From assembly GCA_007132185.1 (NCBI GenBank), contig SLPC01000048.1, positions 1 through 60,447 on the forward strand: 60,447 bases of DNA, given 5' to 3'. This stretch comes from Anaerolineae bacterium (lineage in GTDB: Bacteria > Chloroflexota > Anaerolineae > UBA1429). The position numbers and the translations under genes were made by a program. Positions 24,137-49,523 of the stretch are shown one piece after another (position 1 is the stretch's first letter; each line of letters opens with the position of its first letter). The notes beneath the pieces were generated by a model. The model saw only the letters and a list, made by a program, of their open reading frames with translations. It did no database searches and was not told where the DNA came from.

Positions 24137-24150
24137 CAGCCGGTAGCAGG

Positions 24151-24192
24151 AGACAGGAGATGGCGCGCGATCGAGTGCGCCATCTCCTGTCT
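24151..24192. terminator. Perfect 16-bp hairpin between convergent xylB and an oxidoreductase gene
   Basis: AGACAGGAGATGGCGC-10 nt-GCGCCATCTCCTGTCT. Confidence 0.6.
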
Positions 24193-24217
24193 TGCTATAG
24201 CTCCCGCCCCTTCCAGA

Positions 24218-25363: not shown

Positions 25364-25406
25364 TATATAACTCCTTTGTCTCCCGACTCGTTGAATCCAC
25401 GGAAAC

Positions 25407-26450: not shown

Positions 26451-26514
26451 CCTCCCCGGCCTGCAGCCACTGATAGGCTGTCCGAGCCACGGGCCAGCGT
26501 GCGGCCCGGTGCGG

Positions 26515-27857: not shown

Positions 27858-28538
27858 CTAACTAGGGTATTGGTCTTGGCCGGGTGTCTTGAGATCGCCC
27901 AGCGTGCCCGTGACAAAGAACACGATCCGTTCACAGATGTTGGTCACACGATCGGCGGCGCGCTCCAGATTGTGGGCTGCCCAAAGCAGCAGGTTTGCTT
28001 GCTCCGCCTTGGAGGGATCAGCAAAAACGATCGTCATCAACTCACGCCGCACCTGATTGTAAAGGTCATCCACCTCATCATCCTCATTGGCGATTGCGAT
28101 GGCGGCTTCCATATCGCGCTCGATGTATGCGGTCAATGCGCGCGTGAGCATATCGAGAGCCTTGTCAGCCATGCGCGGGATATCAAGCAAAGGCTTGATC
28201 AGTTCTTGGTCACCAATCAGAAGGTTGATACGGCTGATACCTTTGGCATAGTCGCCAGTACGCTCCAGCTCACGTATAAGATCCAGGATTGCCGCCAGAG
28301 CGCGCAAATCTCTACCGATCGGTTGCTGCGTTGCGATCAACACGAGCACGTCTGCCTCTATCTGAAACCGTTTCGCATTGATACGAGCATCATCCTCTAT
28401 GGTGCGCCGCGAACCTTCCAGATCGCGGGTGCGCAACTGCTCGACGGCATCACGCAGAGCGCGCTGGACCATATTGCCCAACTCGAGCACTTCGCTTTCC
28501 AAGCGCTGCATCTGGCTCTCAAACCGTCTTCTGAGCAT
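27858..28538 (-). CDS. phoU: Phosphate signalling complex protein PhoU
   Basis: Two PhoU repeats (EDDARINAKRFQIE...; NEDDEVDDLYNQV...), directly downstream of pstB. Confidence 0.9.
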   Translation of the reverse strand: MLRRRFESQMQRLESEVLELGNMVQRALRDAVEQLRTRDLEGSRRTIEDDARINAKRFQIEADVLVLIATQQPIGRDLRALAAILDLIRELERTGDYAKGISRINLLIGDQELIKPLLDIPRMADKALDMLTRALTAYIERDMEAAIAIANEDDEVDDLYNQVRRELMTIVFADPSKAEQANLLLWAAHNLERAADRVTNICERIVFFVTGTLGDLKTPGQDQYPS

Positions 28539-28573
28539 ACAACTCCTCTGGAGGGTGGAACCCTAGAGCTCCT

Positions 28574-29341
28574 CTAACCAAAGCGGCCGGTTATATAGTC
28601 TATAGTACGTTGATCCTGGGGCTGTGTAAAGATGCGGCCCGTATCCCCATACTCGATCAGCTTGCCAGTCTGCCCATCGTCGGTGAGAAAAAAGGCCGTC
28701 CAATCCGAGACCCGCGCGGCCTGCTGCATATTATGCGTCACAATCGCGATGGTATAGTCATCCACCAGCTCACGCATCAGGTCCTCGATACGTAGCGTCT
28801 CGATGGGGTCCAGCGCTGATGCAGGCTCATCCATCAGAATCACCTCGGGCCTGACAGCAATCACCCGCGCCAGGCAAAGCCTTTGTTGCTGCCCCAACGA
28901 CAGGGTGAGGGCATCTCGCTTGAGGGTGTCCCTGATCTCGCGCCACAGACCCACATCCTGTAGAGCCTGCTCGACGATATCATCGAGGCTTGCGTCCCGA
29001 TGCATGCCCAACACGCGCGGTCCAAACGCAACATTGTCATAGATCGATTGGGGAAACGGGTTGGGCCGCTGAAACACCATGCCCACCCGCTGGCGTAGTC
29101 GGACCACATCATACCCTGCGCTGTAGATATCCTCATCATCCAGGAGAATCTGTCCGGTTACATGGGCACTCTTGATCGAGTCGTTCATCCGATTCAGGCA
29201 CCGCAAAAAGGTGGACTTGCCACAGCCGGACGGCCCGATCAGCGCGGTAATCTTTCGCTCCTTGATCTCGACCGTTATATCGTCCAGTACGGGCTTGTCT
29301 CCGTACGTGACAGAGACATTCTGGCAATCCATTCTGGTCAT
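28574..29341 (-). CDS. pstB: Phosphate ABC transporter ATP-binding protein (copy 2)
   Basis: Walker [10 protein letters not shown], signature LSLGQQQR, Walker B ILMDEP, and the PstB-type C-terminus DYITGRFG. Confidence 0.92.
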
Positions 29342-29371
29342 CGAGTAGTCTCGTTCCTAGATTGGTTCGTG

Positions 29372-30133
29372 TCAGCCAAAGCGGCCAGTAATATAGTCCT
29401 CAGTACGTTTGTCCTTGGCCTGGGTGAACAGATCCGCGCCCGGGCCTGACTCGATCAGCTCCCCCATCAGGAAGAACGCTGCATAGTCCGCCACCCGCGC
29501 TCCCTGCTGCACGCTGTGGGGCACCAGGATAATGGTATACTGTTTTTTCAGCTCGAGAAGCGAGTGCTCTACCTTGGCCGTCGAGATGGGGTCGAGCCCA
29601 GAGGTGGGCTCGTCCAGAAGCAGGATCTCGGGCTCCAACGAAAGGCTTCGGGCAATGCAAAGACGCTGTTGTTGCCCGCCCGAAAACGAGCTGGCCGGTT
29701 GGTCGAGGCGATCCTTGACCTCGTCCCACAGGGCAGCTTGCTCCAGGCTGGTCTGTAACATCTCATCGAGCCGGCTTCGACTACGGACACCGGCGAGGCT
29801 GGGGCCATAGAGCACATTTTCACGCACAGTGCCTGGCAGCGGCAATGGTAGGGCAAAGACCATGCCCACACGCCGGCGCAACGCGGGCACATCGACGCCG
29901 GGGGCATAGATGTTCTCGTCATCGATCAGAATCTGGCCCGACATCGTCGTATTACCTACACGGTCGTTGAGGCGGTTGATCAGGCGTAATAGCGTGGTCT
30001 TGCCGCCCCCAGCAGGGCCAAAAAAAACCGTGACGGCATGTTCTGGCACGTCAAGGGAGATCCGGCTGAGCGCCTCAATCTGACCGTACCGATAGCTGAC
30101 ATCGCGAATCTGTATCTTGGGGTTGTCTACCAT
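29372..30133 (-). CDS. pstB: Phosphate ABC transporter ATP-binding protein (copy 1, more divergent)
   Basis: Walker A GPAGGGKTT, signature FSGGQQQR, Walker B LLLDEP, and C-terminus DYITGRFG. Confidence 0.88.
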   Translation of the reverse strand: MVDNPKIQIRDVSYRYGQIEALSRISLDVPEHAVTVFFGPAGGGKTTLLRLINRLNDRVGNTTMSGQILIDDENIYAPGVDVPALRRRVGMVFALPLPLPGTVRENVLYGPSLAGVRSRSRLDEMLQTSLEQAALWDEVKDRLDQPASSFSGGQQQRLCIARSLSLEPEILLLDEPTSGLDPISTAKVEHSLLELKKQYTIILVPHSVQQGARVADYAAFFLMGELIESGPGADLFTQAKDKRTEDYITGRFG

Positions 30134-30972
30134 TCCCGCCTACGCCGAAAGTAGCTGCGTATCAACGTCGCGACCAGGTTCATCGAGAGTACAAAGGCCA
30201 AAAGCACCAACGCGGTACCATGCTGAATCTGCAGCGGCATGGCCGGCACCTGGGTGCTGATCACATAGAGGTGATAGGGTAGTGCCATGGTCTGGTCAAA
30301 GGGCGATTGGGGCAGGCGCGGGAGAAAGAACGCCGCCACCGTGAACAGGATCGGCGCGGTCTCGCCAGCCGCCCGAAGCAGCCCCAAGATGACGCCCGTG
30401 ATGATGCCGGGCAATGCCTGAGGCAATACGATGCGGCGAATGCCCTGCCAGTGGGTGCCCCCCAGGCTTTCGCTTACCGTGCGGTACTCCATAGGCACGG
30501 CTCGCAACGCCTCTTCGGAAGTGCTGATGATCACGGGCAGCGTCATGATGGCCAGGGTCAGCGAGCCTGCTAGAATCGAGGTGCCGAACTGCAGTAGCAG
30601 GACAAAGAGCCCGAGGCCGAACAATCCATATACCACCGAAGGAATACTGGCCAGGTTGACAATGGCCAGCCGAATGGCCCGGGTAAAGACGTTGTCTTGG
30701 GCATATTCGGACAGATAGACGGCGGCCCCGACCCCCACGGGTATCGCAACCAATCCGGTACCCAGGGTGAGCAGAATCGTGCCCACGATGGCCGGATAGA
30801 TGCCCCCCGCCCGCATGCCATCGCGCGGCATGGCCGAAAGAAACTCCCAACTGACCGCCGGAAGCCCACTATAGATGATAGCGCCGATCACCAGCAGAAT
30901 GGGGACAATAACTACGAGGCTCAGCAACCCCAGGAGCACAAAGCCCAGCTTCTGGGCTAGCTGTTGGCTCAT
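30127..30972 (-). CDS. pstA: Phosphate ABC transporter permease PstA
   Basis: 6-TM permease with an EAA-like loop (EEALRAVPMEYRTVSESLGGTHWQ). Its operon position fits pstA. Confidence 0.85.
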   Translation of the reverse strand: MSQQLAQKLGFVLLGLLSLVVIVPILLVIGAIIYSGLPAVSWEFLSAMPRDGMRAGGIYPAIVGTILLTLGTGLVAIPVGVGAAVYLSEYAQDNVFTRAIRLAIVNLASIPSVVYGLFGLGLFVLLLQFGTSILAGSLTLAIMTLPVIISTSEEALRAVPMEYRTVSESLGGTHWQGIRRIVLPQALPGIITGVILGLLRAAGETAPILFTVAAFFLPRLPQSPFDQTMALPYHLYVISTQVPAMPLQIQHGTALVLLAFVLSMNLVATLIRSYFRRRREW

Positions 30973-31877
30973 CAGCGTAGCCCTCCCCTCGTTCGTCGCC
31001 GGAACATCACCGAGGCGGCAGAGAGCGTGATGGCAAGAGTGAGGATGAACAGGATCAGCCCGACACCAAAGAGCACATGATAGTGGGTACTACCGCGGGC
31101 CACCTCGCCCATCTCGGCCGCAATGGTGGCGGTCATCGTGCGAATGGGCATGAACAGGTCAGACAGCGAATCGGGGATGCGCGCCGCATTGCCTGTCACC
31201 ATCAGAACGGCCATCGTCTCGCCAATGGCGCGGCCCATCCCCAGCATCACCGCCATAAGGATGCCCGAACGAGCAGCCGGCACCACCACGCGCCATATCG
31301 TCTGCCACTGGGTGGCCCCCATGGCCAGCCCGGCATCACGATAGCTCCGGGGCACCGCGTCCAATGCATCTTCAGCCACGGTAATAATGGTCGGCAACGA
31401 CATGTAGGCCAGCAGCAACGAGCCAGTAAAGGCGGTCAGGCCTGTGGGCGCTCCCAGATTTTCGCGGATGATGGGCGCCACGGTGATCATGCCGAAAAAG
31501 CCCAGCACCACGGAGGGGATGCCCGCCAGTACCTCGATCAGCGGCTTGAGTATCTCGCGGGCCCAACCGGGCACAATTTCTCGCACGAACACCGCCGTGC
31601 CGATGCCCAGGGGAAATGCGATCAACATAGCAACCACAGTGACGAGCAGCGATCCGATGATCAGGGGCAGAACGCCATAGAGCCCCAGGCTCGGGTACCA
31701 GAGGCTGTCGAACAGATTGTTGAGCGGAACGCGCACAAAGGCAGGAATGCCCTCTAGGAGCAAAAAGACAAAGATCATGGCTACAAAGCCAACGGCCGAG
31801 AACCCGAGCACACGGATGATCGTCTCGATCACCCACTCCATGCGCTTACGAACCGGGGGACTCGTCCCAGGAACCAT
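30972..31877 (-). CDS. pstC: Phosphate ABC transporter permease PstC
   Basis: 6-TM permease with an EAA-like loop (EDALDAVPRSYRDAGLAMGATQWQ). Its operon position fits pstC. Confidence 0.85.
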   Translation of the reverse strand: MVPGTSPPVRKRMEWVIETIIRVLGFSAVGFVAMIFVFLLLEGIPAFVRVPLNNLFDSLWYPSLGLYGVLPLIIGSLLVTVVAMLIAFPLGIGTAVFVREIVPGWAREILKPLIEVLAGIPSVVLGFFGMITVAPIIRENLGAPTGLTAFTGSLLLAYMSLPTIITVAEDALDAVPRSYRDAGLAMGATQWQTIWRVVVPAARSGILMAVMLGMGRAIGETMAVLMVTGNAARIPDSLSDLFMPIRTMTATIAAEMGEVARGSTHYHVLFGVGLILFILTLAITLSAASVMFRRRTRGGLR

Positions 31878-31901
31878 CTCACCTCACATGAATAGCTGCT
31901 G

Positions 31902-32858
31902 TCAATCCAGCGGCACGAAACCCAATTCTCGCACCATCTCCTGCCCATCGGTCAGGACCCACTCCAGAAACTCGCGGACCTCGCCGACCGGCTCGCCCGT
32001 AGTATACACATGGAGTGGACGCGAGATCACATAGGTGCCATCACGGACCGTCTCGATGGACGGTAAAACAAAGGGCCCCTCAGGATCGAGCCCTACGGCA
32101 ACTACTTTTTTGTCTGGTGTCACATAGCCCAGGCCATCGTAGCCGATGGCGTTGCGGTTCTGGCGCACCTCTGTGCTGATCCCCTCAGACGAGGGCATCA
32201 GTAAAGAGTTGGGCGAGAACCTGGCATCAGCTCGGGCTGGATCTCGGCGCAGGACATGCTCCAAAAAGTACACATATGTGCCCGAGTTGGACTCGCGCGA
32301 GACAAGCACAATGGGCCGATCATAGCTGCCCAGCTCGGCCCAGTTGGTGATCCTGCCGGTATAGATGTCCGTAATCTGCTGAATTGTGAGCTGTTCGATG
32401 GGATTTTCGAGGTGAACGACGATGGCAATGGCGTCCAGCGCCACCACAAACTCGACGGGATCCATGCCCGCGGCGCGGGCCGCCTCAAACTCGCGGCTTG
32501 TCATGTCACGTGAGGAGGCAGCGATATCGACTGTACCGTTTATCATAGAGGCGATGCCGGTTCCAGAGCCGCCTCCGGTCACAGAGATGCGCACGTCCGG
32601 TTGAACAAGCTGATAGCCCTCCACCCAGGCGAGAGCCAGGTTTACCAGCGTGTCAGAGCCTTTGATCTCTATGGTGCCGGGCGGTGTAGCAGGAGCCGTG
32701 TCATTGGGGGGACGACAGCCCGCTAGAGAGAAGAACAGAGTTGCCACAAGCAAGCACCAGACGCACAGGAATCCAAGATACCTTGTACCCTTTGCATGCC
32801 TGCGATGTGTTGGTACCAATGCGTCACTCCATCGAATAAAGAATCGCTCAGAGTCCAT
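31902..32858 (-). CDS. pstS: Phosphate-binding lipoprotein PstS
   Basis: Lipobox FSLAG|C, plus GSDTLVNLALAW, GGGSGTGIASM, SSRDMT. The exact start is uncertain. Confidence 0.85.
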   Translation of the reverse strand: MDSERFFIRWSDALVPTHRRHAKGTRYLGFLCVWCLLVATLFFSLAGCRPPNDTAPATPPGTIEIKGSDTLVNLALAWVEGYQLVQPDVRISVTGGGSGTGIASMINGTVDIAASSRDMTSREFEAARAAGMDPVEFVVALDAIAIVVHLENPIEQLTIQQITDIYTGRITNWAELGSYDRPIVLVSRESNSGTYVYFLEHVLRRDPARADARFSPNSLLMPSSEGISTEVRQNRNAIGYDGLGYVTPDKKVVAVGLDPEGPFVLPSIETVRDGTYVISRPLHVYTTGEPVGEVREFLEWVLTDGQEMVRELGFVPLD

Positions 32859-32962
32859 TCTAGTGGCAGGCCCGCATCATCGCAAATCGCCATTCTGTAC
32901 GAGTATACAAGACGATACGCCAAAGCCGCAAGGAGCGTATCATTGCTGATTTCGTTATCTCC

Positions 32963-32992
32963 TTGACCAATGCCTGGCGTTGCGTCTAGAAT
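32963..32992 (+). promoter_or_regulatory. Candidate promoter of the nine-gene oxidoreductase/TIM-barrel operon
   Basis: TTGACC (32963-32968), 18-nt spacer, TAGAAT (32987-32992), 44 nt upstream of ATG 33036. Confidence 0.45.
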
Positions 32993-33035
32993 AGACGAAA
33001 GAAGACCCATTTTCTGCCAAGAAGGAGTGCCTTTC

Positions 33036-34157
33036 ATGAGCGACAAGACTCGGATCGCCATAATAGGTGTAGGTCAAATTGGCACGCGTCATCTGGAGAA
33101 ATATGCCCAGATTCCTGATGCGGAGGTCGTAGCCATCGCTGATCTGCGAGAAGACCATGCCGAGCGGATTGCGGAACAGTTTGGCGTGCCTGACACGTAT
33201 GGTGACTATGCCGCGATGCTCAAGCGTAATGACATCGACGCCGTGGATGTATGCCTCCACAATCGACTGCACTGCCAGGCAACCATTGATGTGCTCGAGT
33301 CAGGCAAGCACTGCTACTGCGAAAAGCCCATGTCCTGGACCTATGCCGAATCCAAAGAGATGTATGATGCCGCACACAGTGCCGGCAAAAAGCTGCACAT
33401 TCAGTTGGGGCGCATCTACCAGGCGCCATCGCGCGCCGCCAAGCGCCTTATCGAGGACGGCCACCTGGGCAGGATCTATTTCGCCAAGACGGTCAACTAT
33501 CGTCGTCGGGGCCGTCCCTTTGTGGACGGATACGGCACGCCCGCCTTTGTTAGCGTCGAGACCTCGGGAGGCGGCGCCATGCTCGATATGGCCGTCTACC
33601 ATATTTCACTTATGTTGTATCTGTTGGATAATCCCGAGCTGGAGACCGTCTCTGGCGCAACCTATCAGACGCTCGAGAATATAGACCCCGATCGGGCTCA
33701 GGAATCGGACTATAACGTAGAAGAACTGGGCATGGCCTATATCCGGCTGGCGGGCGGCATAAGCCTGATCCTAGAGGAAGCCTGGGCCATCCATTCCGAT
33801 GATCCTGCCAGAGAGCAGGTGATGGGCTCTCGGGGCGGGCTACGAGTTGATCCACTGACCTACTATGCCACACTATCTGATCTCGAGATGGATGCTACCT
33901 TTGATGTCGAAAAGGGGATCTGGCGCTGGGAGCAGTCCGATCCCTGTGCGGTGTACTACTCCGAGTCGCAAAAGCACTGGGTGGCCGCCCTACAGGGCGA
34001 GGTACCATTGATCGACACGGCAGGACTGGCCCTCAATACCGCCTTGATTACCGAGGGCGTATATCTGTCCAGCCATCTGGGACGCGAGGTCACCCGTGCA
34101 GAGATCGAGGAAGCAGAGCCTGGTTTGGGCCGAAAGCACAGTCCAAAAGTCGAATAA
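33036..34157 (+). CDS. Gfo/Idh/MocA family oxidoreductase (1 of 3)
   Basis: RIAIIGVGQIGTRH Rossmann fold and YCEKPMS. ATG 33036 follows GAAGGAG at 33021-33027. Confidence 0.85.
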   Translation: MSDKTRIAIIGVGQIGTRHLEKYAQIPDAEVVAIADLREDHAERIAEQFGVPDTYGDYAAMLKRNDIDAVDVCLHNRLHCQATIDVLESGKHCYCEKPMSWTYAESKEMYDAAHSAGKKLHIQLGRIYQAPSRAAKRLIEDGHLGRIYFAKTVNYRRRGRPFVDGYGTPAFVSVETSGGGAMLDMAVYHISLMLYLLDNPELETVSGATYQTLENIDPDRAQESDYNVEELGMAYIRLAGGISLILEEAWAIHSDDPAREQVMGSRGGLRVDPLTYYATLSDLEMDATFDVEKGIWRWEQSDPCAVYYSESQKHWVAALQGEVPLIDTAGLALNTALITEGVYLSSHLGREVTRAEIEEAEPGLGRKHSPKVE

Positions 34158-34176
34158 TCTCGTGGAGGAGAGCACA

Positions 34177-35280
34177 ATGACTCGTAACAAGCTCAAGGTA
34201 GGGTTGATCGGCACCGGCATGATCTGCAACATCGCTCACGTGCCGGCCTGGCGCGAGCTGGCCGATGAGGTAGAGATCGTCGGGGCAGCGGATGTCGTGG
34301 CCGACCACGCGCGGGGCACCGCCGAGGCCCATGACATTCCCCAATGGTTCGATGACCCGCAACGTATGCTGGACGAGCTGCGCCCCGATATCGTATCGGT
34401 GTGCGCGCCCAATCGCTACCACAAGCCCTGGACTCTGGCCGCTCTCGAGGCAGGCGCCCATGTGCTGTGCGAAAAGCCTGTGGCCGATAACTATCAGGAT
34501 GCCGTGGAGATGTATGATGCCGCCGAGGCTGCCGGCAAGCTCCTGATGGTGGGGCAGAGCGTACGTTTTCGCAGTGACAGCATGGCTGCCAAATCGCTGA
34601 CTGACGCGGGCGTCCTCGGCGAGACCTACTACGCCGAGGCAGGCGCCATGCGCCGCCGTGGCGTTCCGACCTGGGGCCAGTTCCATATGCAGGAGCACTC
34701 GGGCGGTGGCCCGATCTATGATATCGGCGTGCATGCCCTGGATCTGGTCATGTGGCTCATAGGCAGCCCCAGGGTGATCTCGGTTAGCGGCGCTGCCTAT
34801 ACCCGGTTGGCGAATCAGGACGAGGGCCTGCTGACCTCGGAGGCCGATAGCGGTGCGCCCGAAGGTGTGCCCGCCGCCCGCCCATATGACTATCGCGAGT
34901 TTGACGTAGAGGATCTGGGCGTTGGGTTCTTGCGGTTGGAGAACGACATGACCATCGTATTGCGGGCCTCGTGGGCCGCCAACATCCCCGAGGGCACCGG
35001 CAGCACCTTTATCCTTGGCACCAGGGCCGGCATGGCGCTCAATCCTCTGCGCATCATCGGCACATTGGGGGCCTATCAGGCCGATACGACCCCCATCGTG
35101 CCAGGCCGAGATGAGCCCTTTGCCATGGGGCACATCCGCGAGGCGGCCCACTTTGTGCGGGCCATTCGCGGCGAGGAGGAGCTGAGCGTCAAGCGAGACG
35201 AGGTGCTGAACGTCATTCATGCCCTCGATGCGTTATACCGCTCAGCCCAGTCGGGCGCCGAAGTGCATCTTGACTGGTAG
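34177..35280 (+). CDS. Gfo/Idh/MocA family oxidoreductase (2 of 3)
   Basis: KVGLIGTGMI and LCEKPVA. ATG 34177 follows GGAGGAG at 34164-34170. Confidence 0.85.
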   Translation: MTRNKLKVGLIGTGMICNIAHVPAWRELADEVEIVGAADVVADHARGTAEAHDIPQWFDDPQRMLDELRPDIVSVCAPNRYHKPWTLAALEAGAHVLCEKPVADNYQDAVEMYDAAEAAGKLLMVGQSVRFRSDSMAAKSLTDAGVLGETYYAEAGAMRRRGVPTWGQFHMQEHSGGGPIYDIGVHALDLVMWLIGSPRVISVSGAAYTRLANQDEGLLTSEADSGAPEGVPAARPYDYREFDVEDLGVGFLRLENDMTIVLRASWAANIPEGTGSTFILGTRAGMALNPLRIIGTLGAYQADTTPIVPGRDEPFAMGHIREAAHFVRAIRGEEELSVKRDEVLNVIHALDALYRSAQSGAEVHLDW

Positions 35281-35312
35281 AGCGTGTCCGCCATAGACAA
35301 AGGAGAACCGCC

Positions 35313-36440
35313 ATGACCAATACCTATCGCCTGGGGATCATTGGGTTTGGGCACATGCACATCAACAACGTAGCGCAGCTCTTTGATGCGCACCCGCAGG
35401 TCCAGTGGGTGGCCTGCTCCGACACGATGCCCATTGGGCCCGAGCTCCGCAAGGCCCCCTATACTCGCGAATGGAATCGCGAGAATGTCATGTCCTTCAC
35501 GGGCATGGATACCTACTATGACGTGTTCTACGAGATGCTGGTCAAAGAGGATCTGGACATCGTAATCGTCACCTGCGAGAATGCACAACATCCGGCGGTG
35601 GTTGAGGCGTGCGCCGCTTCGGGCGTGAGTGTATGTGTCGAAAAGCCGATGGCAGCCAGCCTGCCCGATGCCCTGCGTATGGTACGGGCCTGCATCGCCA
35701 ATGATGTGAGCATGGTGATCAACTGGCCTCTGACCTGGTCGCCGGCAGCCCGCCAGGCCAAAGAGCTGATCGACGAGGGAACCATTGGCCGCGTGCTGGA
35801 GGTCAAGTGGAGATCGGGTCACACCGGCCCCCTGGGCCAGGGTGCGGCCCATGCCGGTGTCGAGGACGAGGCAGAGACGCTGAGCGGCGTGGAACGAGCG
35901 GCCACCTGGTGGCACCAGACGGCAGCCGGGGGCGGCGCCATGCTCGACTATTGCTGCTACGGGGCGATGGTCAGCCGCTGGTACATCGGCAAGCCGGCCC
36001 AGGCGGCGATGGGCATGCGGGCCAACCTGCACAGCCAATGGGGCGACGCCGAGGACAATGCCGCCATGCTGGTTCGCTTCCCTGGAGCCATGGCCCTCCT
36101 GGAGGGATCCTGGACCACCCTGGATCACGGTGTGCCCACGGGTCCCATCATCTATGGCACCACGGGAACGCTGCTCGTTGGTAGCGATGACGAGGGCCCC
36201 TTTGTGCGACTGACACGCGGCGGCGGCGACACGACGGTCTATCGGCCCGATCCCCTGCCCGAGGGGCGCCACAATGTGGCCTACGAGTTCATCCATCATC
36301 TGGACACCGGCGAGCCAGTGCACCCGACGCTGGACATGCAGAACAATCTCGAGTATATGGCTATACTGGACGCAGGCCTGCGCTCGGCCGGAAGCGGCCA
36401 GATCGAACTGGTCGACAGTGCCGCCTGGAGCATCGGATGA
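35313..36440 (+). CDS. Gfo/Idh/MocA family oxidoreductase (3 of 3, divergent N-terminus)
   Basis: RLGIIGFGHMH and CVEKPMA, with RBS AGGAG at 35301-35305. Confidence 0.8.
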   Translation: MTNTYRLGIIGFGHMHINNVAQLFDAHPQVQWVACSDTMPIGPELRKAPYTREWNRENVMSFTGMDTYYDVFYEMLVKEDLDIVIVTCENAQHPAVVEACAASGVSVCVEKPMAASLPDALRMVRACIANDVSMVINWPLTWSPAARQAKELIDEGTIGRVLEVKWRSGHTGPLGQGAAHAGVEDEAETLSGVERAATWWHQTAAGGGAMLDYCCYGAMVSRWYIGKPAQAAMGMRANLHSQWGDAEDNAAMLVRFPGAMALLEGSWTTLDHGVPTGPIIYGTTGTLLVGSDDEGPFVRLTRGGGDTTVYRPDPLPEGRHNVAYEFIHHLDTGEPVHPTLDMQNNLEYMAILDAGLRSAGSGQIELVDSAAWSIG

Positions 36441-36451
36441 GAGGGGGCGCC

Positions 36452-37219
36452 ATGGCAACGGACAGGGTTTCGCTGGCATCTTACGCCTTTCATGGCCTGC
36501 TGGCCGATGGCAAGATGGACCTGTTTGGATACCTGGAGAGCTGCAAGTTTCGCTACCAGGTGCAAGCCGATATCTGGAACGGGATGCTGATTAGCACCGA
36601 AACCGACTACTTGTACAAGGTCAAAGAGGCGCTGGATAGCCGTGGCCTGGTATTGGCCAATCTGTGCGTGGACGAGGCCCACATCTGGGAGGATGATGAG
36701 GATGCGCGCGAGGCCAACCACCGCAACGCCCTGGCGCATCTCGAGGCCGCCGAGATCCTGGGCGCGCGCACGGTCCGCATCGACGCCGGAGGCGATCCAC
36801 GGGCGCGTGTCTTTACAGAACAGCAGTTTGACCATATCATTCAGCGCTACCGTGAATATGCGCGGCGCGCCCTCGACGGGGGCTATCGGGTGGGGCCTGA
36901 GAACCATTGGGGGGCAGAGGTAGTGCCCGAGAACATGCGACGCATTTGCGAGGCGGTGGATCATCCTGCGTTCGGCGTGCTACTGCATTTTCGCGGAGAT
37001 GCCGGAGATCGCGTCATGGTCCCCTGGGCGATGCACACCCACGTCTCGTGGGAAATCACCGAGGGCCCGCTCACGGCCTGCATGGGGATGTTGCGCGATG
37101 CAGGCTATGAGGGCTACTGGGGCGTCGAGCACCATAGCGGGCGCAACGAGTACACCGAGGTCGCCGTGCAGATCGCTCGGGTACGCGACGTCCTGTGGCG
37201 TTGGCAGCGTGGCGAGTAA
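36452..37219 (+). CDS. Xylose-isomerase-like TIM-barrel protein (sugar phosphate isomerase/epimerase family), paralogue 1 (most divergent)
   Basis: Motifs AAEILGARTVRIDAGG, RYREYARRALDGGYRVGPENH, AVDHPAFGVLLH, PWAMHTHV, GYEGYWGVE. ATG 36452 follows GAGGGGG. Confidence 0.8.
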   Translation: MATDRVSLASYAFHGLLADGKMDLFGYLESCKFRYQVQADIWNGMLISTETDYLYKVKEALDSRGLVLANLCVDEAHIWEDDEDAREANHRNALAHLEAAEILGARTVRIDAGGDPRARVFTEQQFDHIIQRYREYARRALDGGYRVGPENHWGAEVVPENMRRICEAVDHPAFGVLLHFRGDAGDRVMVPWAMHTHVSWEITEGPLTACMGMLRDAGYEGYWGVEHHSGRNEYTEVAVQIARVRDVLWRWQRGE

Positions 37220-37241
37220 CCAAGATCATCCAGGAGGCAAG

Positions 37242-38018
37242 ATGCGCATTTCGTTGATGTCTTACACGTTCAACCCCATGACCCGCGAGGGAACCATGGA
37301 TGCCTTTACCTATCTGGAGACGGTGCGGTATCGCTACGATCTGACGACCGCCGATCTCTGGAATCGGACCCTGGCCAGTCTGGAGCCAGACCATCTGCAG
37401 GCGCTACGGATGGGGCTGATCGAACGGGAGCTGGACCTGGTCAACCTGGCTGTTGATGGGGCCCACATCTGGGAAGAAGATCCTGATACTCGTGATGAGC
37501 ACCACAGGGTGGCCCTGGATCATCTGCTTGCCGCCGAGATCCTGGGCGCCAAGTCGGTGCGCATCGATGCGGGCGGAGGGCGCGATGAACGCGAATGGAC
37601 CTCGGAGCAGTTTGACCATATTGTGATGCGCTTCCGCGAGTATGCCCAGCATGCCCACGACAATGGCTATATGGTAGGACCGGAGAATCACTGGGGCGCC
37701 GCCACGGTACCCAAAGAGGTCAAGCGTCTGTGCGAGGCGGTGGATCATCCTGCTTTTGGCGTGTTGCTGCACTGCAAGCGTTGGCAGGGCGACCAGGCCG
37801 CCCAGGGCGACGAGATCGTGGCCCCCTGGACGATGCATCTGCACCTGACGGCAGCCCTGTCGGACGAAGAGCTTTCCGATACGATGGAGATGCTGCGCGA
37901 CAAAGGCTATACTGGAGTCTGGGGTATCGAGCTGGGCGGCGCGACTCATGCCGAGGCAGGCGTGATGGTTGCCAGGGTCCGACGCGTGCTGGAAGAGTGG
38001 CGACTCGCAGACGCCTAA
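37242..38018 (+). CDS. Xylose-isomerase-like TIM-barrel protein, paralogue 2
   Basis: MRISLMSYTF... start after CAGGAGG at 37231-37237. It carries the same motif set (GPENH, AVDHPAFGVLLH, APWTMHLHL). The long ORF-track start at 36999 is rejected. Confidence 0.85.
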   Translation: MRISLMSYTFNPMTREGTMDAFTYLETVRYRYDLTTADLWNRTLASLEPDHLQALRMGLIERELDLVNLAVDGAHIWEEDPDTRDEHHRVALDHLLAAEILGAKSVRIDAGGGRDEREWTSEQFDHIVMRFREYAQHAHDNGYMVGPENHWGAATVPKEVKRLCEAVDHPAFGVLLHCKRWQGDQAAQGDEIVAPWTMHLHLTAALSDEELSDTMEMLRDKGYTGVWGIELGGATHAEAGVMVARVRRVLEEWRLADA

Positions 38019-38039
38019 GATCGAGATCAACCAATCAAC

Positions 38040-38819
38040 ATGCGCTTGTCTCTGATGGCATATACATTCTACCCTATGCTCCAACGCGGTGTCATGGATG
38101 AGTTTGGATATCTGGAAACGATCCGCTATCGCTATGGCCTGCGGGCGGCGGATCTGTGGAACTGGATGCTGGACAGTATCGATGATAACCATGCCCGGGT
38201 TGTGCAGCGCGCCCTCGTAGAGCGCGAGTTGGAGCTTGTCGGCCTGAGTGTCAGCGGTCCCACTGTCTGGGCCGATGACCTGAACGCGCGAGAATACAAC
38301 CACAGGAACCTGTTGACACATCTGCGTGCGGCCGAGATTCTCGGCGCCAAGACGGTGACGATAGAGGCGGGGGGCCAGTACGATGCCCTCACGTATAGTG
38401 ACGAGCAGTTCGACTATTTCGTCACGCGCTACCGCGAGTATGCGCAGCGCGCCCATGACAACGGGTACAGGATAGGGCCGGAGAATCACTATGGCCCTGA
38501 GCTGGTGCCGGCAGAGATGCGACACCTCTGCCAGGCAGTGGATCATCCCGGCTTTGGGATGGTGCTGCACACCAGAGAATGGATAGGAGAGGACGCACAC
38601 CGGGGCACCGAGATGCTGGCCCCATGGATCATGCATGTACATCTGTCAGACGTCCCCTCGCATGAGAAGATGGTCGATACCGTGACAACGCTCCTCAATG
38701 GTGGCTATGCTGGTGCGTGGAGTATCGAGACCGAGCAAGGGGCAAGCTACGCCCAGGCGGGCCTCATGATTGCCCGGGTGCGGCATATACTGGAAGGATG
38801 GCGCCATACGGTGGATTGA
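38040..38819 (+). CDS. Xylose-isomerase-like TIM-barrel protein, paralogue 3
   Basis: MRLSLMAYTF... with the same motif set (GPENH, AVDHPGFGMVLH, APWIMHVHL). Confidence 0.85.
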   Translation: MRLSLMAYTFYPMLQRGVMDEFGYLETIRYRYGLRAADLWNWMLDSIDDNHARVVQRALVERELELVGLSVSGPTVWADDLNAREYNHRNLLTHLRAAEILGAKTVTIEAGGQYDALTYSDEQFDYFVTRYREYAQRAHDNGYRIGPENHYGPELVPAEMRHLCQAVDHPGFGMVLHTREWIGEDAHRGTEMLAPWIMHVHLSDVPSHEKMVDTVTTLLNGGYAGAWSIETEQGASYAQAGLMIARVRHILEGWRHTVD

Positions 38820-38832
38820 TCCAGGAGAATCT

Positions 38833-38844
38833 GGGGGGGGGGGG
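38833..38844 (+). repeat. G12 homopolymer tract in the paralogue 3/4 spacer
   Basis: ctGGGGGGGGGGGGagatcgcATG. The tract forms the apparent SD of paralogue 4. Confidence 0.9.
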
Positions 38845-38851
38845 AGATCGC

Positions 38852-39631
38852 ATGCACGTCACAGTAATGTCCTACTCGTTCTATCCGATAACTCGCGCAG
38901 GTACCATGGATGTTTTTGGCTATCTGGAGACGATCCGCTACCGCTATGGCCTGCGTACGGCGGACCTGTGGAACTGGACTATGGCCAGCACCGAAGAGGA
39001 CTATGTCCGAGTCGTGCGGCGCGGCCTGGTGGAGAGGGGGCTGGAGCTGGCCGGCCTCAATGTCAGCAACTACCTCATATGGGATGACGATCCAGGCATT
39101 CGCAACTATAATCATCGCAGTGTCCTGGCCAACCTACGGATTGCCGAGATCCTGGGCGCCCAGACCGTCTCGCTCGAGGCGGGGGGCCATCATGATGCGC
39201 ATGACTATACCGAGGAGCAGTTCGACTATTTCGTCACCCGCTATCGCGAATATGCCCAGCGCGCCTACGATAATGGCTACCGGGTGGGGCCGGAGAATCA
39301 TTTTGGTCCAGAGCTCAGACCGACAGTGATGCGGCGCCTCTGCGAGGCGATAGACCACCCCGGCCTTGGCTTTTTGCTCCATGCCGGAAACTGGGATGGG
39401 GAGAATGCCGATCGGGGAAACACCATGTTGGCCCCGTGGGTGATGCATGTGCATCTGCCAGACAGCCTATCCGATAAAGACCTCTCCGAGATGATGACGA
39501 TGCTGCGTGACCACGGCTATGCCGGCGCGTGGAGCGTCGAGGCGGTATATGGAGGAACCTACGCCCAAGTAGGCGCCATGATCGCCCGTGTGCAGCGTGT
39601 GTTGGAGGGCTGGCGGCTGATCGATCAATGA
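38852..39631 (+). CDS. Xylose-isomerase-like TIM-barrel protein, paralogue 4
   Basis: MHVTVMSYSF... with the same motif set (GPENH, AIDHPGLGFLLH, APWVMHVHL). The ORF-track start at 38717 is rejected. Confidence 0.85.
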   Translation: MHVTVMSYSFYPITRAGTMDVFGYLETIRYRYGLRTADLWNWTMASTEEDYVRVVRRGLVERGLELAGLNVSNYLIWDDDPGIRNYNHRSVLANLRIAEILGAQTVSLEAGGHHDAHDYTEEQFDYFVTRYREYAQRAYDNGYRVGPENHFGPELRPTVMRRLCEAIDHPGLGFLLHAGNWDGENADRGNTMLAPWVMHVHLPDSLSDKDLSEMMTMLRDHGYAGAWSVEAVYGGTYAQVGAMIARVQRVLEGWRLIDQ

Positions 39632-39651
39632 GCATTACCATTGGGGGTATG

Positions 39652-40440
39652 ATGCGCGTCTCGGTCATCTCGTACTCGTTCTTTCCCATGACTCGCACGG
39701 GCATCATGGACACCTTTGGGTACCTGGAAACGGTCCGCTACCGATATGACCTGCGCGCGGCGGATCTGTGGAACTGGACCATGGACAGTATCGATGATGA
39801 CTATGTGCAGGCTGTGCGGAGAGGCCTGATCGAACGAGAGTTGGCTCTGGCCAACTTTTCCTTGGACGGTTGCCATGTATGGGAGAAAGACCCAGGCGCA
39901 CGCAAGTTCAACCATCGCAACGCATTGGCCAACCTTCGGGCCGCCGAGATCATGGGGGCCCAGACGGTGCGCATCGATACGGGCGGCCCGGCGGATGTGT
40001 CTCACTATACCAACCAGCAGTTCGATCACATCGTCATGCGCTATCGCGAATATGCCCAGCGCGCCTATGACAATGGCTACCGGGTGGGGCCGGAGAACCA
40101 CTGGGGCCCCGAGCGCTTCCCACAAGAGCTACAGCGCCTGAGCGAGGCCGTGGATCATCCCGGCTTTGGCATCCTGCTCCATGCCGGGCTGTGGGACGTG
40201 GATGCCGACCAGGGGGATCGGATGCTGGCGTCGTGGGTGATGCACACCCACCTGACAGAGAGCCTCACCGACGACGCTCTGGCCGAGGTCATTGCCACAC
40301 TTGATGCCGCCGGTTACGAGGGCGGCTGGACCGCCGAGGTGGAAAAGGGCGCCACCTACGTGTCGGCGGGCCTCCTCATCGCTCGCATACAACGCGTACT
40401 TGAGAGCCGGCGTCTGGGTGATCAACGGACATTGACATGA
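39652..40440 (+). CDS. Xylose-isomerase-like TIM-barrel protein, paralogue 5
   Basis: (M)MRVSVISYSF... with the same motif set (GPENH, AVDHPGFGILLH, ASWVMHTHL). The start is 39649 or 39652. The ORF-track start at 39529 is rejected. Confidence 0.85.
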   Translation: MRVSVISYSFFPMTRTGIMDTFGYLETVRYRYDLRAADLWNWTMDSIDDDYVQAVRRGLIERELALANFSLDGCHVWEKDPGARKFNHRNALANLRAAEIMGAQTVRIDTGGPADVSHYTNQQFDHIVMRYREYAQRAYDNGYRVGPENHWGPERFPQELQRLSEAVDHPGFGILLHAGLWDVDADQGDRMLASWVMHTHLTESLTDDALAEVIATLDAAGYEGGWTAEVEKGATYVSAGLLIARIQRVLESRRLGDQRTLT

Positions 40441-40453
40441 GTGGGTTATAGAT

Positions 40454-41233
40454 ATGCGCATCTCGGTAGTTTCTTCTTCGTTCTTTCCCATGAACCGTGC
40501 CGGCACCATGGATGTATTCGGTTACCTGGAATCGATGCGGTACCGCTACGGCCTGTACACAGCCGACATTTGGAACTGGTCCTTGGCCAGTCTCGACCAG
40601 GAGCATATCCAGGCTGTTCGAGGAGCCCTTGTGGAGCGCGAAATGAGGCTGGCCGCCCTGTCCACCGATGGCTCCCATCTGTGGGAAGACGATCCTGCGG
40701 CGCGCGCGTACAACCATCGCATGACTTTGGAGCATATGCGCGTCGCCGAGTCCATGGGCGCCAACATGGTGCGTATCGACGCGGGAGCTGGTGTCGACAC
40801 CCAGACTTTTGGCGAGGAACAAATCGATCTATTGGCGACCCGCTACCGCGAGTATGCCCAGCGCGCCCATGACAACGGCTACAAGATCGGGGCTGAGAAC
40901 CATTACGGCGCCGAGCGGAACCCCCTCGAGATGCGGCGCCTCGCCGAGGCCGTGGATCATCCCGGCTTTGGCCTGATCCTGCACGTCGGAAACTGGCGCG
41001 GAGAGAACGCCGACCGGGGCGATGCTATGACCGCTCCCTGGACCATCCACGTCCACCTGCCGGACAGCCTAACCGACGAGGGGCTGGCCGAGCCGATGGC
41101 GCTACTGCGCAACACAGGCTATGTCGGGACTTGGTGCATCGAGTTCGAAGGGGGCGCCACCTATGCCCAGGCGGGCGTCATGATCGCCCGCGTACAGAGT
41201 GTACTGGAGGGCTGGCGCCTCGCGGGCACGTGA
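40454..41233 (+). CDS. Xylose-isomerase-like TIM-barrel protein, paralogue 6
   Basis: MRISVVSSSF... with the same motif set (GAENH, AVDHPGFGLILH, APWTIHVHL). Confidence 0.85.
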   Translation: MRISVVSSSFFPMNRAGTMDVFGYLESMRYRYGLYTADIWNWSLASLDQEHIQAVRGALVEREMRLAALSTDGSHLWEDDPAARAYNHRMTLEHMRVAESMGANMVRIDAGAGVDTQTFGEEQIDLLATRYREYAQRAHDNGYKIGAENHYGAERNPLEMRRLAEAVDHPGFGLILHVGNWRGENADRGDAMTAPWTIHVHLPDSLTDEGLAEPMALLRNTGYVGTWCIEFEGGATYAQAGVMIARVQSVLEGWRLAGT

Positions 41234-41302
41234 CCCTACCGCTACCGCGATCGAACGGCAGCCAAGTTCTGGTACGTCTTGTCCCGTGATCTACTGACTG
41301 GT

Positions 41303-42478
41303 TCAGTCGCGTCTCGGATCCACATAGTGAATGACGCCCCGCTCGCCACTCACCAGCCAATCGGCGTCCTCCGCCGCGATTGTGGCCGCCTCACCCTCTT
41401 GTAGCCCCACCATCAACTCGGCCTTGAGGGTGCGCAGCGTCACAAAGGGCGCGGGCATGTAGCGCGTCACCGCGGCCATGTCGGTGGTGTGCGGCCAATG
41501 ACGGTCCTCCAGCAGGCGCCGATAGTTGACATCGCCCTTGAGCAGGATCAAATCCGAGCCCATCAGATGCTCTTTCAGGTCGGGCGGAAGCTCGGTCAGG
41601 TGGCGGCTGGTAGTCCAGAACCAGTGAGCCTCGAGCACGATGCGGCTCTCTTCCTGAGCGCGTCTCAACAGCGCCCCCAGCGCCTCGCTGGCCGGATCGC
41701 GCATGGCCTCCAACGCCTGGCGGCTCAGGACATAGTCCTTGGACATGGCATCCGAAACAAAGTAGGGTTGGGGCTTGAGATGGATGTGCACCGTGTCCAC
41801 CAGGTCATGCTCCAGCATCAGGCCGATCAGCCCCATGTCGGCCAGCAGTTCGGGGCCGCTATTGTCGGCAACCCAGTCCAACCGCTTGACCTGGCCTGCA
41901 GACACCCGCTCCCAGACATCGCGACGATGGTCGATGAGGATGCGATGGCTCTCGTCGCCGTCGGCCTCACTGCCGCCTGATATGGCGATGTTGCTCAAAT
42001 CGGCGCGATTGCCCCACAGGCTGCGCGACATGGCTATCCAAAAGAGCCCCTCCAGATCGGACTCGTCCAGGTTCTCGTAAAAGCGTTGGGTTGCCTCCAG
42101 GCCCTCCCCCAGAGCCTCGCGCTTTTGGGGCTCGAATGGATCCAGCAGGAACCAGCGGCCGGGCTCGAAATAGCGCACCGTCTCCAGCAGACGCCGGTAG
42201 AAATATGTCTCGGCCACGAACCAGGGCAACTGCAACCAGGTGGCCCCTTCCCAGGGCGCCAACGCCTCTCGCCATCGGCCGGCATCCCGGGCGTCCTCGG
42301 GAAGCGGGGCGACGGGCGCGCCCCGGATCTCGTCGATCAAACGATGCAGCTCTGAAACGATCTCTTCCGAGTAGTGCTGGGTGTCGATCACCTCGGTAAC
42401 GACGCCCGGCTTGCGATACAGGATCGTATGCTCGGCAAAAGAGCCGGTATCGGAAACCATCAGGTATGGTGGTAGCAT
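41303..42478 (-). CDS. DUF89 / ARMT1-like damage-control phosphatase family protein
   Basis: Motifs WVADNSGPELLADM and LILLKGDVNYRRL. ATG 42478 follows AGGAGGG (minus strand, 42493-42487). The ORF-track start at 42538 is rejected. Confidence 0.75.
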   Translation of the reverse strand: MLPPYLMVSDTGSFAEHTILYRKPGVVTEVIDTQHYSEEIVSELHRLIDEIRGAPVAPLPEDARDAGRWREALAPWEGATWLQLPWFVAETYFYRRLLETVRYFEPGRWFLLDPFEPQKREALGEGLEATQRFYENLDESDLEGLFWIAMSRSLWGNRADLSNIAISGGSEADGDESHRILIDHRRDVWERVSAGQVKRLDWVADNSGPELLADMGLIGLMLEHDLVDTVHIHLKPQPYFVSDAMSKDYVLSRQALEAMRDPASEALGALLRRAQEESRIVLEAHWFWTTSRHLTELPPDLKEHLMGSDLILLKGDVNYRRLLEDRHWPHTTDMAAVTRYMPAPFVTLRTLKAELMVGLQEGEAATIAAEDADWLVSGERGVIHYVDPRRD

Positions 42479-42641
42479 TTCGTTGTCCCTCCTATAACAG
42501 CCAGGGGCATTGTACAATGAATGCCGTTCACTGACCATTCACGGCAAGGAAAGAGCGCCCCATTATCCCGCAAGAAGCAAGGGTGCTATAGTCATGGTGT
42601 GCCACCCGGATGCGAGAATCCACAAGGCCTGTGCGGCTGTG

Positions 42642-49322: not shown

Positions 49323-49336
49323 GCTTGTTTGTGCAA

Positions 49337-49375
49337 GCGATATGTGGGGCGGCGCATTACCGCCCCACATATCGC
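49337..49375 (+). promoter_or_regulatory. Perfect 16-bp intra-operon hairpin after the binding-protein gene
   Basis: GCGATATGTGGGGCGG-7 nt-CCGCCCCACATATCGC, with no U-tract. Confidence 0.6.
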
Positions 49376-49523
49376 TCTAGAGCTCGATGCGCAGGCGCAT
49401 GCCCCCGGTCGATATACCCATCTCTTGCTGGGCACATCGACGGCATGTGCTTGCGCGCCGAGACTTGGCCCGTAGGCCAAGCACCTTATCTACTAATCCA
49501 AGCAGTGCGAGGAGACAAGCTTC

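Follow-up and report, generated by a model that had tools for sequence, protein, structure and literature searches.

Three Gfo/Idh/MocA oxidoreductase genes and six tandem TIM-barrel genes in an Anaerolineae bacterium: a candidate operon for redox-assisted glycoside processing

Which task could call for three Gfo/Idh/MocA oxidoreductases and six paralogous TIM-barrel proteins that are encoded one after the other in a single operon? The question is raised by a locus of an Anaerolineae bacterium (Chloroflexota; UBA1429), and the window that was analysed comprises positions 1-60,447 (60,447 nt) of contig SLPC01000048.1 of assembly GCA_007132185.1. It is a chromosomal segment with a GC content of about 62%; among its genes are the housekeeping ones for MutS2, UvrC and a class A penicillin-binding protein as well as the trp operon, and its closest relatives are Anaerolineae/Anaerolineales metagenome-assembled genomes (MAGs). 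At 33036-41233, nine open reading frames (ORFs) on the + strand encode three Gfo/Idh/MocA oxidoreductases (G1-G3), followed by six TIM-barrel proteins of the Pfam family PF01261 (T1-T6). The operon is likely to perform some Gfo-coupled keto-sugar chemistry. As to its form, we lean, at somewhat below even confidence, towards an expanded redox-assisted (3-keto) glycoside-processing route, in which the T proteins would carry out elimination and hydration and would form an amplified specificity panel.

The gene content agreed with a preliminary description of the locus. G1 (33036-34157; 373 amino acids, aa), G2 (34177-35280; 367 aa) and the divergent G3 (35313-36440; 375 aa) all exceeded the Pfam cut-offs with an N-terminal Rossmann domain (PF01408) and C-terminal PF02894/PF22725 domains (both of the latter in G1), and they are 28-35% identical to one another. 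They are followed by T1 (36452-37219; 255 aa), T2 (37242-38018; 258 aa), T3 (38040-38819; 259 aa), T4 (38852-39631; 259 aa), T5 (39652-40440; 262 aa) and the final gene of the operon, T6 (40454-41233; 259 aa). All six matched PF01261 (AP_endonuc_2) at 46.2-74.3 bits (T1, 60.9; T3, 74.3; gathering cut-off, 31.1), and their pairwise identities are 47-61% (T1-T2, 54%). The nine co-directional genes, the mutual divergence of the three oxidoreductases, the six xylose-isomerase-like paralogues and the lack of a transporter, kinase, aldolase or regulator gene had been described correctly, and the five conserved sequence blocks that had been quoted were all present in the alignment of T1-T6.

With the starts given above, the intergenic spacers are 11-32 nt long, as had been reported. 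An own Shine-Dalgarno (SD) motif had been ascribed to each gene; SD-like purine runs were found upstream of eight of the nine, and T3, which has no clear SD motif, is the exception. Gene calls in sister assemblies place the starts of T1 (36437, giving 260 aa) and T5 (39628, giving 270 aa) at ATGA overlaps with the preceding stop codons, and translation would then be coupled at the G3/T1 and T4/T5 junctions. The promoter proposed previously, TTGACC-18-TAGAAT at 32963-32992 (+), was recovered in a consensus scan and matches 10 of 12 consensus positions. When the intergenic region between G1 and the divergent pstS gene was aligned for six species, both hexamers and their spacing were invariant, at a mean column identity of 61% for the region, and this conservation is a good phylogenetic footprint of what is probably a real promoter. 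No terminator-like site of the + strand was found inside the operon, and the region from the T6 stop to the end of the next gene (41215-41320) folds no better than shuffled sequences (z 0.23). An Rfam scan of the whole window yielded no family at the gathering score and no riboswitch or leader RNA.

The array is not an assembly artefact, as the preliminary description had surmised: it or parts of it recur in four independent assemblies, and the paralogues are only 47-61% identical, so that a collapsed repeat was also rejected. In a protein look-up, the full order G1-G2-G3-T1 to T6 with the same flanking genes was found in two European Nucleotide Archive (ENA) assemblies, and parts of the array are carried by two Logan run assemblies that are cut by contig ends. 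One of the ENA assemblies (ERZ27301263; locus L084, related loci being designated by L numbers) is 99.75% identical to the window at the nucleotide level over 17 kb and contains the complete 3+6 array. A poly-G tract in the T3-T4 spacer (38833-38844, +) varies in length between assemblies: it has 12 G in the window and in L086 and L087 (Logan), 9 G in L084 and 8 G in L085. Slipped-strand variation that is real, or else an error in assembling the homopolymer, may account for this; because the tract lies upstream of the GGAG/ATG of T4, the SD-to-start spacing is unaffected. Pseudogenes were rejected as well, because all nine frames are intact and every T copy retains the 17 residues that are invariant in its family.

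The oxidoreductases give the first indication of the chemistry. In a search of solved structures, G2 matched DgpA1 (9m3d, E 3e-62) and DgpA (7xr9, E 2e-61, over residues 4-359) best, with the two matches spanning residues 4-365; it is 37% identical to DgpA from end to end and 34% identical to E. coli YcjS over its full length (368 aligned columns, E 3e-62). The best matches of G1 were also DgpA1 (E 4e-41) and DgpA (E 2e-33), with identities of 35% to DgpA1, 29-35% across DgpA/DgpA1 and 30% to YcjS, restricted to the N-terminal ~270-290 residues. In C- and O-glycosides, C3 is the site oxidised by DgpA-type enzymes (PMC11239390), and YcjS carries the annotation D-glucoside 3-dehydrogenase. Against G1 and G2, inositol dehydrogenases and glucose-fructose oxidoreductase scored many orders of magnitude worse. 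For G3, the best solved structure was a scyllo-inositol dehydrogenase (5ya8), with a partial match at E 7e-12; there was no meaningful match to YcjS, and no close characterised relative was retrieved in the solved-structure search. Orthologues of G3 are conserved beside T genes at eight loci (L001-L003, L005, L012, L019, L031, L043). Judged by sequence, G2 is a full-length homologue of characterised glycoside 3-dehydrogenases, and G3 is not.

Further features are shared with DgpA (gut strain PUE/Dorea; 7xr9, 9m3d) and YcjS. The translations contain the EKP motif (CEKPM in G1, CEKPV in G2, VEKPM in G3) and the GGG...D-x3-(H/Y) motif (GGGAMLDMAVYH in G1, GGGPIYDIGVH in G2, GGGAMLDYCCY in G3), and the known enzymes are also encoded beside a xylose-isomerase-like TIM-barrel gene. 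On the other hand, the identities are only in the thirties, the TIM-barrel partner differs from both DgpB/C and YcjR, and the array has three Gfo paralogues, including the orphan G3. The top NCBIfam match of both G1 (111 bits) and G2 (105 bits) was IolG, and none of the equivalog models for IolG (TIGR04380), levoglucosan dehydrogenase (NF052479), BT_2158_fam (NF058561) and BT_2159_fam (NF058563) was reached by G1-G3. Therefore, exact substrates cannot be transferred by homology.

The TIM-barrel proteins belong to a compact and distinct family. A profile of the six copies retrieved at least 1659 proteins from a collection of 5.8 billion, and clustering at 50% yielded 68 clusters at E<1e-30 and 218 at E<1e-10. 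Most members are from Chloroflexota; others are from one Pseudalkalibacillus isolate and from MAGs labelled Planctomycetota, Verrucomicrobiota, Acidobacteria-type, Armatimonadota, Poribacteria and Calditrichaeota; at least eight phylum-level groups are spanned. The database labels of the homologues are generic ('sugar phosphate isomerase/epimerase', 'TIM barrel protein').

An AlphaFold2 model of T2 (pLDDT 97.4) showed a (beta/alpha)8 barrel with eight strand-helix units. Foldseek retrieved 333 solved structures at E<=0.001 with this model, and all listed matches are of the same superfamily. Below the top match, 4OVX (E 1e-14, TM 0.85, 19% identity), the E values level off at 1e-9 to 1e-11, with identities of 12-17%; this plateau includes ketose 3-epimerases, Art22, UlaE, AsbF, YcjR, DgpB-C and a C-glycoside deglycosidase (CGD). 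DgpB-C and CGD ranked 34 and 50 with 16% identity and are generic fold matches. A profile of 62 T sequences, searched against all solved-structure chains, matched 4OVX at 1.4e-12, 3KWS at 3.6e-4, IolE (3cny) at 1.7e-3 and MJ1311 at 3e-3, and the remaining matches were noise. The IolE match is partial and weak, and no iol pathway genes were seen among the annotated window genes. The comparison of the T family with YcjR by HHalign profile-profile alignment was not significant (probability 1.6%, E 0.031). None of the six copies fell into a characterised orthogroup in NCBIfam and solved-structure searches. Because it has no significant characterised relative, the T family cannot be assigned to a known lyase, hydratase or epimerase, and by these comparisons it is a family without a characterised member.

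The nearest structure and the only clear sequence match among solved structures, 4OVX, is a 'xylose isomerase domain protein' of Planctopirus limnophila from structural genomics. It differs from T in its length (~305-313 aa), in a Pfam TAT-signal match of some family members and in an Asp at the position of H177 of T, and its family, a very large one, is separate from that of T. A search of that family, with a query sequence reconstructed from the alignment, gave at least 8000 scored candidates, all at E<=1e-20. Members listed from other lineages, including Gemmataceae and Blastocatellia MAGs, were ~75-80% identical, a striking conservation. In the two genomes that were inspected, the gene stands alone (Planctopirus) or beside a GSDH (PQQ glucose/sorbosone dehydrogenase-like) gene (L172 6001-6942, L174 6001-6915); no Gfo neighbour was found, and the context is uninformative. 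The 4OVX family is thus itself an orphan.

Conserved residues were compared next. Across 62 members, including all six copies of the window, 17 columns are invariant, among them E148-N149-H150, H177, H199, H201 and E230. In the T2 model, E148-N149-H150 lies just after strand 5 (model strand 144-146), H177 at the end of strand 6, H199/H201 in strand 7 and E230 past strand 8. Alignments with 4OVX and YcjR indicated that the canonical Asp ligand of beta6 is not conserved and that the invariant H177 takes its place, which suggests a Glu/His/His/Glu site instead of the canonical Glu/Asp/His/Glu. In O-glycoside eliminase and C-glycoside deglycosidases an (E/H)-x-H motif is found past beta5, the second His of which is the base (PMC10628242); E148-x-H150 of T resembles this motif in the alignment.

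Neighbours of the T genes were counted at 56 GTDB loci and 34 metagenome loci with at least 1.5 kb on both flanks. A Gfo/Idh/MocA gene is directly adjacent to T at 29 of the 56 GTDB loci, and at 13 of the 34 metagenome loci; within 5 kb, the number for GTDB rises to 34. The commonest partner is an orthologue of G1 (47-64% identical), which may precede or follow T and is found in Chloroflexota, Armatimonadota, Verrucomicrobiota and a Pseudalkalibacillus. At eight loci, the gene just upstream of T encodes a Gfo protein of 510-530 aa, the best NCBIfam match of which is the glycoside 3-dehydrogenase BT_2158_fam, at 283-307 bits and well under the 750-bit cut-off; these loci are of Planctomycetota, Verrucomicrobiota and Acidobacteriota type, and the MAG labels are Planctomycetota, Pirellulales, Cytophagia, Calditrichaeota, Bryobacterales/Bryobacteraceae and Terriglobia.

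Individual loci widen this picture. In one Anaerolineae lineage (L081, identical to L014; 2832-8762), Gfo is replaced by two FAD-dependent oxidoreductases, the genes of which precede T together with those for a pectate-lyase-fold protein and a further PF01261 member; here, the chemistry may be the same but driven by FAD. A MalT-type regulator gene and a UxuA-like gene are located nearby. In Pseudalkalibacillus (L075), a T-G1 pair is part of a glycan-utilisation locus. A second pair of Gfo and TIM-barrel genes is found there, along with two GH35-like genes, a sulfatase gene and genes for an AraC regulator and an ABC permease. At L043, a T-G1-G2-G3-T module is located beside a sulfatase gene, a Gfo gene, an FGGY kinase gene and a further PF01261 gene. 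For loci without a Gfo neighbour, Pfam searches with 42 flanking ORFs yielded heterogeneous families and no second recurrent partner. Taken together, the only recurrent neighbour of T across phyla is an oxidoreductase, be it a G1 orthologue, a BT_2158-like protein or FAD enzymes.

How the 3+6 array arose was deduced from copy numbers and from a neighbour-joining tree. Of 80 genome loci, 74 have a single T gene, as have 76 of 80 metagenome loci; the maximum in any complete locus of these two sets is two copies. The six copies were not found again in this survey, and a T4-specific scan of metagenome contigs found nothing; among the loci examined, six copies are confined to the species-level lineage of the window. 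Other loci contain G1-G2-G3 with one T (L012), G1-G2 with T1 (L004) or a 3+2 arrangement with T1 and T2 (L002, L003, L005, L092, L093). Four copies (T1, T2 and two T4-like) are present at L088, where the contig begins inside T1 and the Gfo end is unseen; at least three at L089 (T3-like, T4-like and a second T4-like); and at least three at L001 before the contig end.

In the tree, T1 is placed among the T genes of single-copy genomes and T2 among second copies, and T3-T6 form a long-branched sister group of the T2 clade. By this phylogeny, T1 is the ancestral orthologue of the single-copy family, T2 the second-oldest copy, and the expansion is placed within the T2-derived branch. T2 has orthologues at L001, L002, L003, L005 and L088, T3 has one at L089 (74%), and T4 has orthologues at L001, L088 and L089 (70-81%). 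For T5 and T6, only the same-species protein was closest to each among the 120 matches listed. The 3+6 array is the end of a series and not a founding architecture: G1+T in many phyla was followed by G1-G2-G3-T in other Anaerolineae and then, in close relatives, by 3+2, four T copies and 3+6.

That the array is old and retained, as had been proposed, was supported by substitution rates. Synonymous divergence (dS) between paralogues is 0.9-2.6 and saturated or nearly so, and the copies are therefore old; a recent dosage amplification was rejected for the same reason. Between orthologues, the ratio of nonsynonymous to synonymous rates (dN/dS) is 0.07-0.17 for T1, 0.125 for T2, 0.27 for T3 and 0.18-0.30 for T4, values that indicate purifying selection throughout, more relaxed in the younger copies. 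The beta-to-alpha loops form the catalytic face of a TIM barrel. In the six copies, their mean pairwise identity is 0.45, compared with 0.70 for the opposite loops. At positions that are conserved in the family, T3 has the replacements D72S, H75T, R107T, D109E and W151Y, and T4 has D72S, H75L, R107S, D109E and W151F; the altered residues would lie on the catalytic face. Loop-biased variation together with these replacements is the pattern expected of specificity diversification, unlike dosage amplification or decay.

These results can be combined into a scheme for a 3-keto glycoside route. Gene content, homologies, fold, co-occurrence, copy-number history, purifying selection and promoter conservation were computed directly; every catalytic step of the scheme and its substrates are inferred. 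G2, and probably G1, would be NAD-dependent glycoside C3-dehydrogenases, which generate a 3-keto-glycoside and acidify the neighbouring C-H. The T proteins would be metal-dependent (beta/alpha)8 barrels acting on this intermediate, by 1,2-elimination of the aglycone to a 2-hydroxy-3-keto-glycal and subsequent hydration, and the two roles would be divided between the ancestral pair T1 and T2. The released 3-keto-sugar would be reduced to the normal sugar by G3 or G1. The net result would be a cofactor-neutral hydrolysis without a classical glycosidase. T3-T6 would stem from successive tandem duplications within the T2 branch, confined to a single narrow lineage of Anaerolineae, and would form a panel whose specificities differ in sugar, anomer or aglycone. 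All nine enzymes appear to be cytoplasmic, because no N-terminal signal extension is present.

Precedents for such a route exist, and the preliminary description had pointed to the oxidation-assisted sugar chemistry of Gfo and TIM-barrel pairs, a logic that fits the proximity of G2 and G1 to DgpA/YcjS and the recurrent oxidoreductase neighbour. In the levoglucosan route, LgdA, LgdB1, LgdB2 and LgdC catalyse oxidation, elimination, hydration and reduction (PMC7676230), and Agrobacterium tumefaciens has GlycDH, the eliminase OGE (AtOGE), the hydratase HYD (AtHYD) and a Gfo reductase (PMC10628242). In gut Bacteroidota (AL/BT1-4), a TIM barrel annotated as 'sugar phosphate isomerase' is a Co2+-dependent 3-keto-beta-glucoside 1,2-lyase, and in the Gram-positive P2B11 four-gene cluster two oxidoreductases are flanked by two isomerase-like genes, without transporter or regulator (both bioRxiv 10.1101/2024.03.25.586180). 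The array shares with the BT2156-2159/AL1-AL4, P2B11, Lgd and AtOGE clusters the combination of Gfo (or FAD) dehydrogenases with 'sugar phosphate isomerase' TIM barrels. As in P2B11, transporter and regulator genes are lacking, and the ancestral 3 Gfo + 2 TIM resembles an arrangement of 2 Gfo + 2 TIM; the T genes of other phyla are located directly downstream of BT_2158-like dehydrogenase genes. In contrast to these clusters, T has no detectable sequence similarity to solved lyases or hydratases, a DUF1080 protein is lacking, the proteins all seem to be cytoplasmic, and six TIM barrels instead of one or two are combined with three dehydrogenases.

Several results weigh against this scheme. At E<=10, the T profile retrieved no lyase, hydratase, C-glycoside deglycosidase or YcjR among the solved structures, and the NCBIfam models gave zero matches to the T proteins. 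G1-G3 reached at most 111 bits, compared with equivalog cut-offs of 355-750. About 40% of the T loci have no oxidoreductase within 5 kb, most genomes make do with a single T, and the operon lacks a transporter or glycan-binding gene. Characterised lyase/hydratase pairs also seem to diverge far more than T1 and T2, with their 54% identity. Last, the Foldseek neighbours below 4OVX are mostly ketose 3-epimerases, and epimerisation is therefore equally compatible with the fold.

Extended to the whole family, the glycoside scheme would make T a hitherto unrecognised enzyme class of several phyla, namely cytoplasmic lyases/hydratases (or epimerases) of 3-keto-glycosides with an unusual Glu/His/His/Glu site, which use any C3-oxidising partner available in a lineage and were expanded to a six-enzyme specificity panel here. 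We regard this wider proposal as possible, though doubtful. If it were true, a fermentative Chloroflexi bacterium would open many glycosides in a broad-spectrum, glycosidase-independent manner from a single promoter. Oxidation-assisted ('non-Koshland') glycoside cleavage has been recognised only recently. Its logic is nevertheless already known, and bacteria commonly expand catabolic enzymes in tandem within single lineages; the T family is uncharacterised yet widespread, and the copy number is exceptional for this family. The authors of the work on 3-keto cleavage expect further operon architectures with distant sequences (bioRxiv 10.1101/2024.03.25.586180). The T family, which is repeatedly encoded beside glycoside-3-dehydrogenase-like genes, is a lead for enzyme discovery, and the series of one, two, four and six copies in close relatives is a natural one for studying the divergence of specificity. 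The locus also points to a possible carbohydrate-processing capacity of Anaerolineae that CAZyme-based annotation would miss.

The alternative that survives best replaces cleavage by oxidation, epimerisation and reduction, i.e. 'sugar stereo-editing' as in E. coli YcjQRS. Here, the G proteins, with differing stereospecificities, would oxidise and re-reduce C3, and the T proteins, as 3-keto-sugar or 3-keto-glycoside epimerases or isomerases, would invert neighbouring centres, the six copies covering different epimer pairs and converting rare sugars or glycosides to metabolisable ones. The similarity of G2 and G1 to YcjS (34% and 30%) matches that to DgpA, and ycjS adjoins the TIM-barrel epimerase gene ycjR. 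T has the fold and a similar size to YcjR, a 3-keto-D-guloside 4-epimerase, and to the ketose 3-epimerases DPEase and DTEase (Foldseek TM 0.69-0.78); below 4OVX, the list is dominated by D-psicose/D-tagatose 3-epimerases and UlaE, with YcjR at rank 30 (TM 0.75). In a global alignment, the EPLN, GHVH and YE motifs of YcjR lie opposite E148, H199/H201 and E230 of T. The invariant E148 and E230 would suit a two-base mechanism, and three dehydrogenases exceed the strict need of a lyase route. However, the identities to this group are only 12-17%, the HHalign comparison with YcjR was not significant, and T has H177 at the place of the Asp in the Glu-Asp-His-Glu metal tetrad of these epimerases. Moreover, the position of T beside BT_2158-like dehydrogenases mirrors the lyase-containing BT2156-2159 cluster (bioRxiv 10.1101/2024.03.25.586180). 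We consider stereo-editing somewhat unlikely, and do not place it lower because fold and residues do not discriminate it from the lyase scheme. If the T proteins were ordinary epimerases, the finding would shrink to a lineage-specific expansion of a gene family.

Cyclitol interconversion, which had been suggested for the locus, is improbable. G1-G3 would be dehydrogenases for inositol stereoisomers and the T proteins IolI/IolE-type inosose isomerases or dehydratases, so that several inositols would be interconverted or degraded, a reading for which the IolG top matches of G1 and G2, the weak match of the T profile to IolE and the partial match of G3 to scyllo-inositol dehydrogenase could be quoted. 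Yet the IolG scores are far under the cut-off of 355 bits, and DgpA matches G1/G2 at E 1e-41/1e-62, far better than the solved inositol dehydrogenases (1e-11 to 1e-21). In addition, no inositol-pathway family was seen in the Pfam results of the annotated window genes, and the contexts in other genomes (L075, L043) are glycan-related.

That T1-T6 must assemble into a single hetero-oligomer and do not act as independent enzymes is highly improbable. The tight co-transcription and the possible ATGA coupling would be in line with it, and AtOGE is dimeric and C-glycoside deglycosidases are heteromeric (PMC10628242, PMC8563793), but T is a single-copy gene at nearly all loci surveyed, close relatives manage with 1, 2 or 4 copies, and every copy has the full set of putative catalytic residues. 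The least probable proposal, a role in the Pho response in which the operon and an ARMT1-like phosphatase scavenge phosphate from phosphorylated sugars or cyclitols, draws on the divergent pst operon, the convergent ARMT1/DUF89 gene after T6 and the retained synteny, but this synteny is limited to one clade, the two divergent promoters are separate, and no phosphatase or kinase is encoded inside the operon.

The pst operon, which was absent from the preliminary description, is a complete phosphate-uptake operon of pstS-pstC-pstA-pstB-pstB-phoU at 27858-32858 (-), with phoU at 27858-28538 (-). PstS, PstC, PstA and one PstB exceeded the NCBIfam cut-offs, and the second PstB scored 324.7 bits compared with 343.2. 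The intergenic region to G1 comprises 177 bp (32859-33035). On the pstS side, a promoter-like site (TTGCGA-17-TAGAAT, 32885-32857) overlaps the longest possible pstS start, and the true start is therefore probably 13 codons downstream, as called in L084. A perfect palindrome, GTATAC (32903-32908), lies between the two divergent promoters and is conserved in four of the six species. On the other side of the array, an ARMT1-like/DUF89 'damage-control phosphatase' gene (41303-42538, -) is convergent on T6 at a distance of 69 bp and is followed by MutS2 and UvrC genes; it is syntenic in L002-L005, L084 and L088. The synteny of pst, array and ARMT1 is retained in L001-L005, L084-L086, L088, L092 and L093. 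As the G-T modules of the more distant L012, L043, L031 and L075 have other neighbours and no pst genes, the pst link was treated as clade-specific synteny and not as functional linkage.

Beyond the pst operon, a sugar-acid-type cluster (22589-27714) comprises an FGGY kinase gene (+), a fourth Gfo/Idh/MocA gene (-) and a rhamnonate-dehydratase-like gene of the enolase superfamily (-), and it includes a 347-aa protein (25407-26450, -) without a Pfam or NCBIfam match. Since an FGGY kinase gene and a Gfo gene abut the T-G1-G2-G3-T module in L043, both clusters may once have been one unit.

Three observations concern the remainder of the window. At 166-8633, the gene for a class A penicillin-binding protein (transglycosylase plus transpeptidase, 862 aa) overlaps by 4 nt with the next gene, which encodes a 1960-aa bacterial alpha-2-macroglobulin-like protein with Big_5 repeats; the two resemble the known pbpC-A2M gene pairing. 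A sugar-type ABC transporter at 47814-53619 has unusually long parts, namely a 502-aa SBP_bac_1 protein and two permeases, one of 665 aa and the other of 635 aa, with two BPD_transp_1 matches each. A strongly negative AT skew at 50-54 kb coincides with these permease genes, and a positive AT skew at 30-32 kb coincides with the membrane-protein genes pstC/pstA on the opposite strand.

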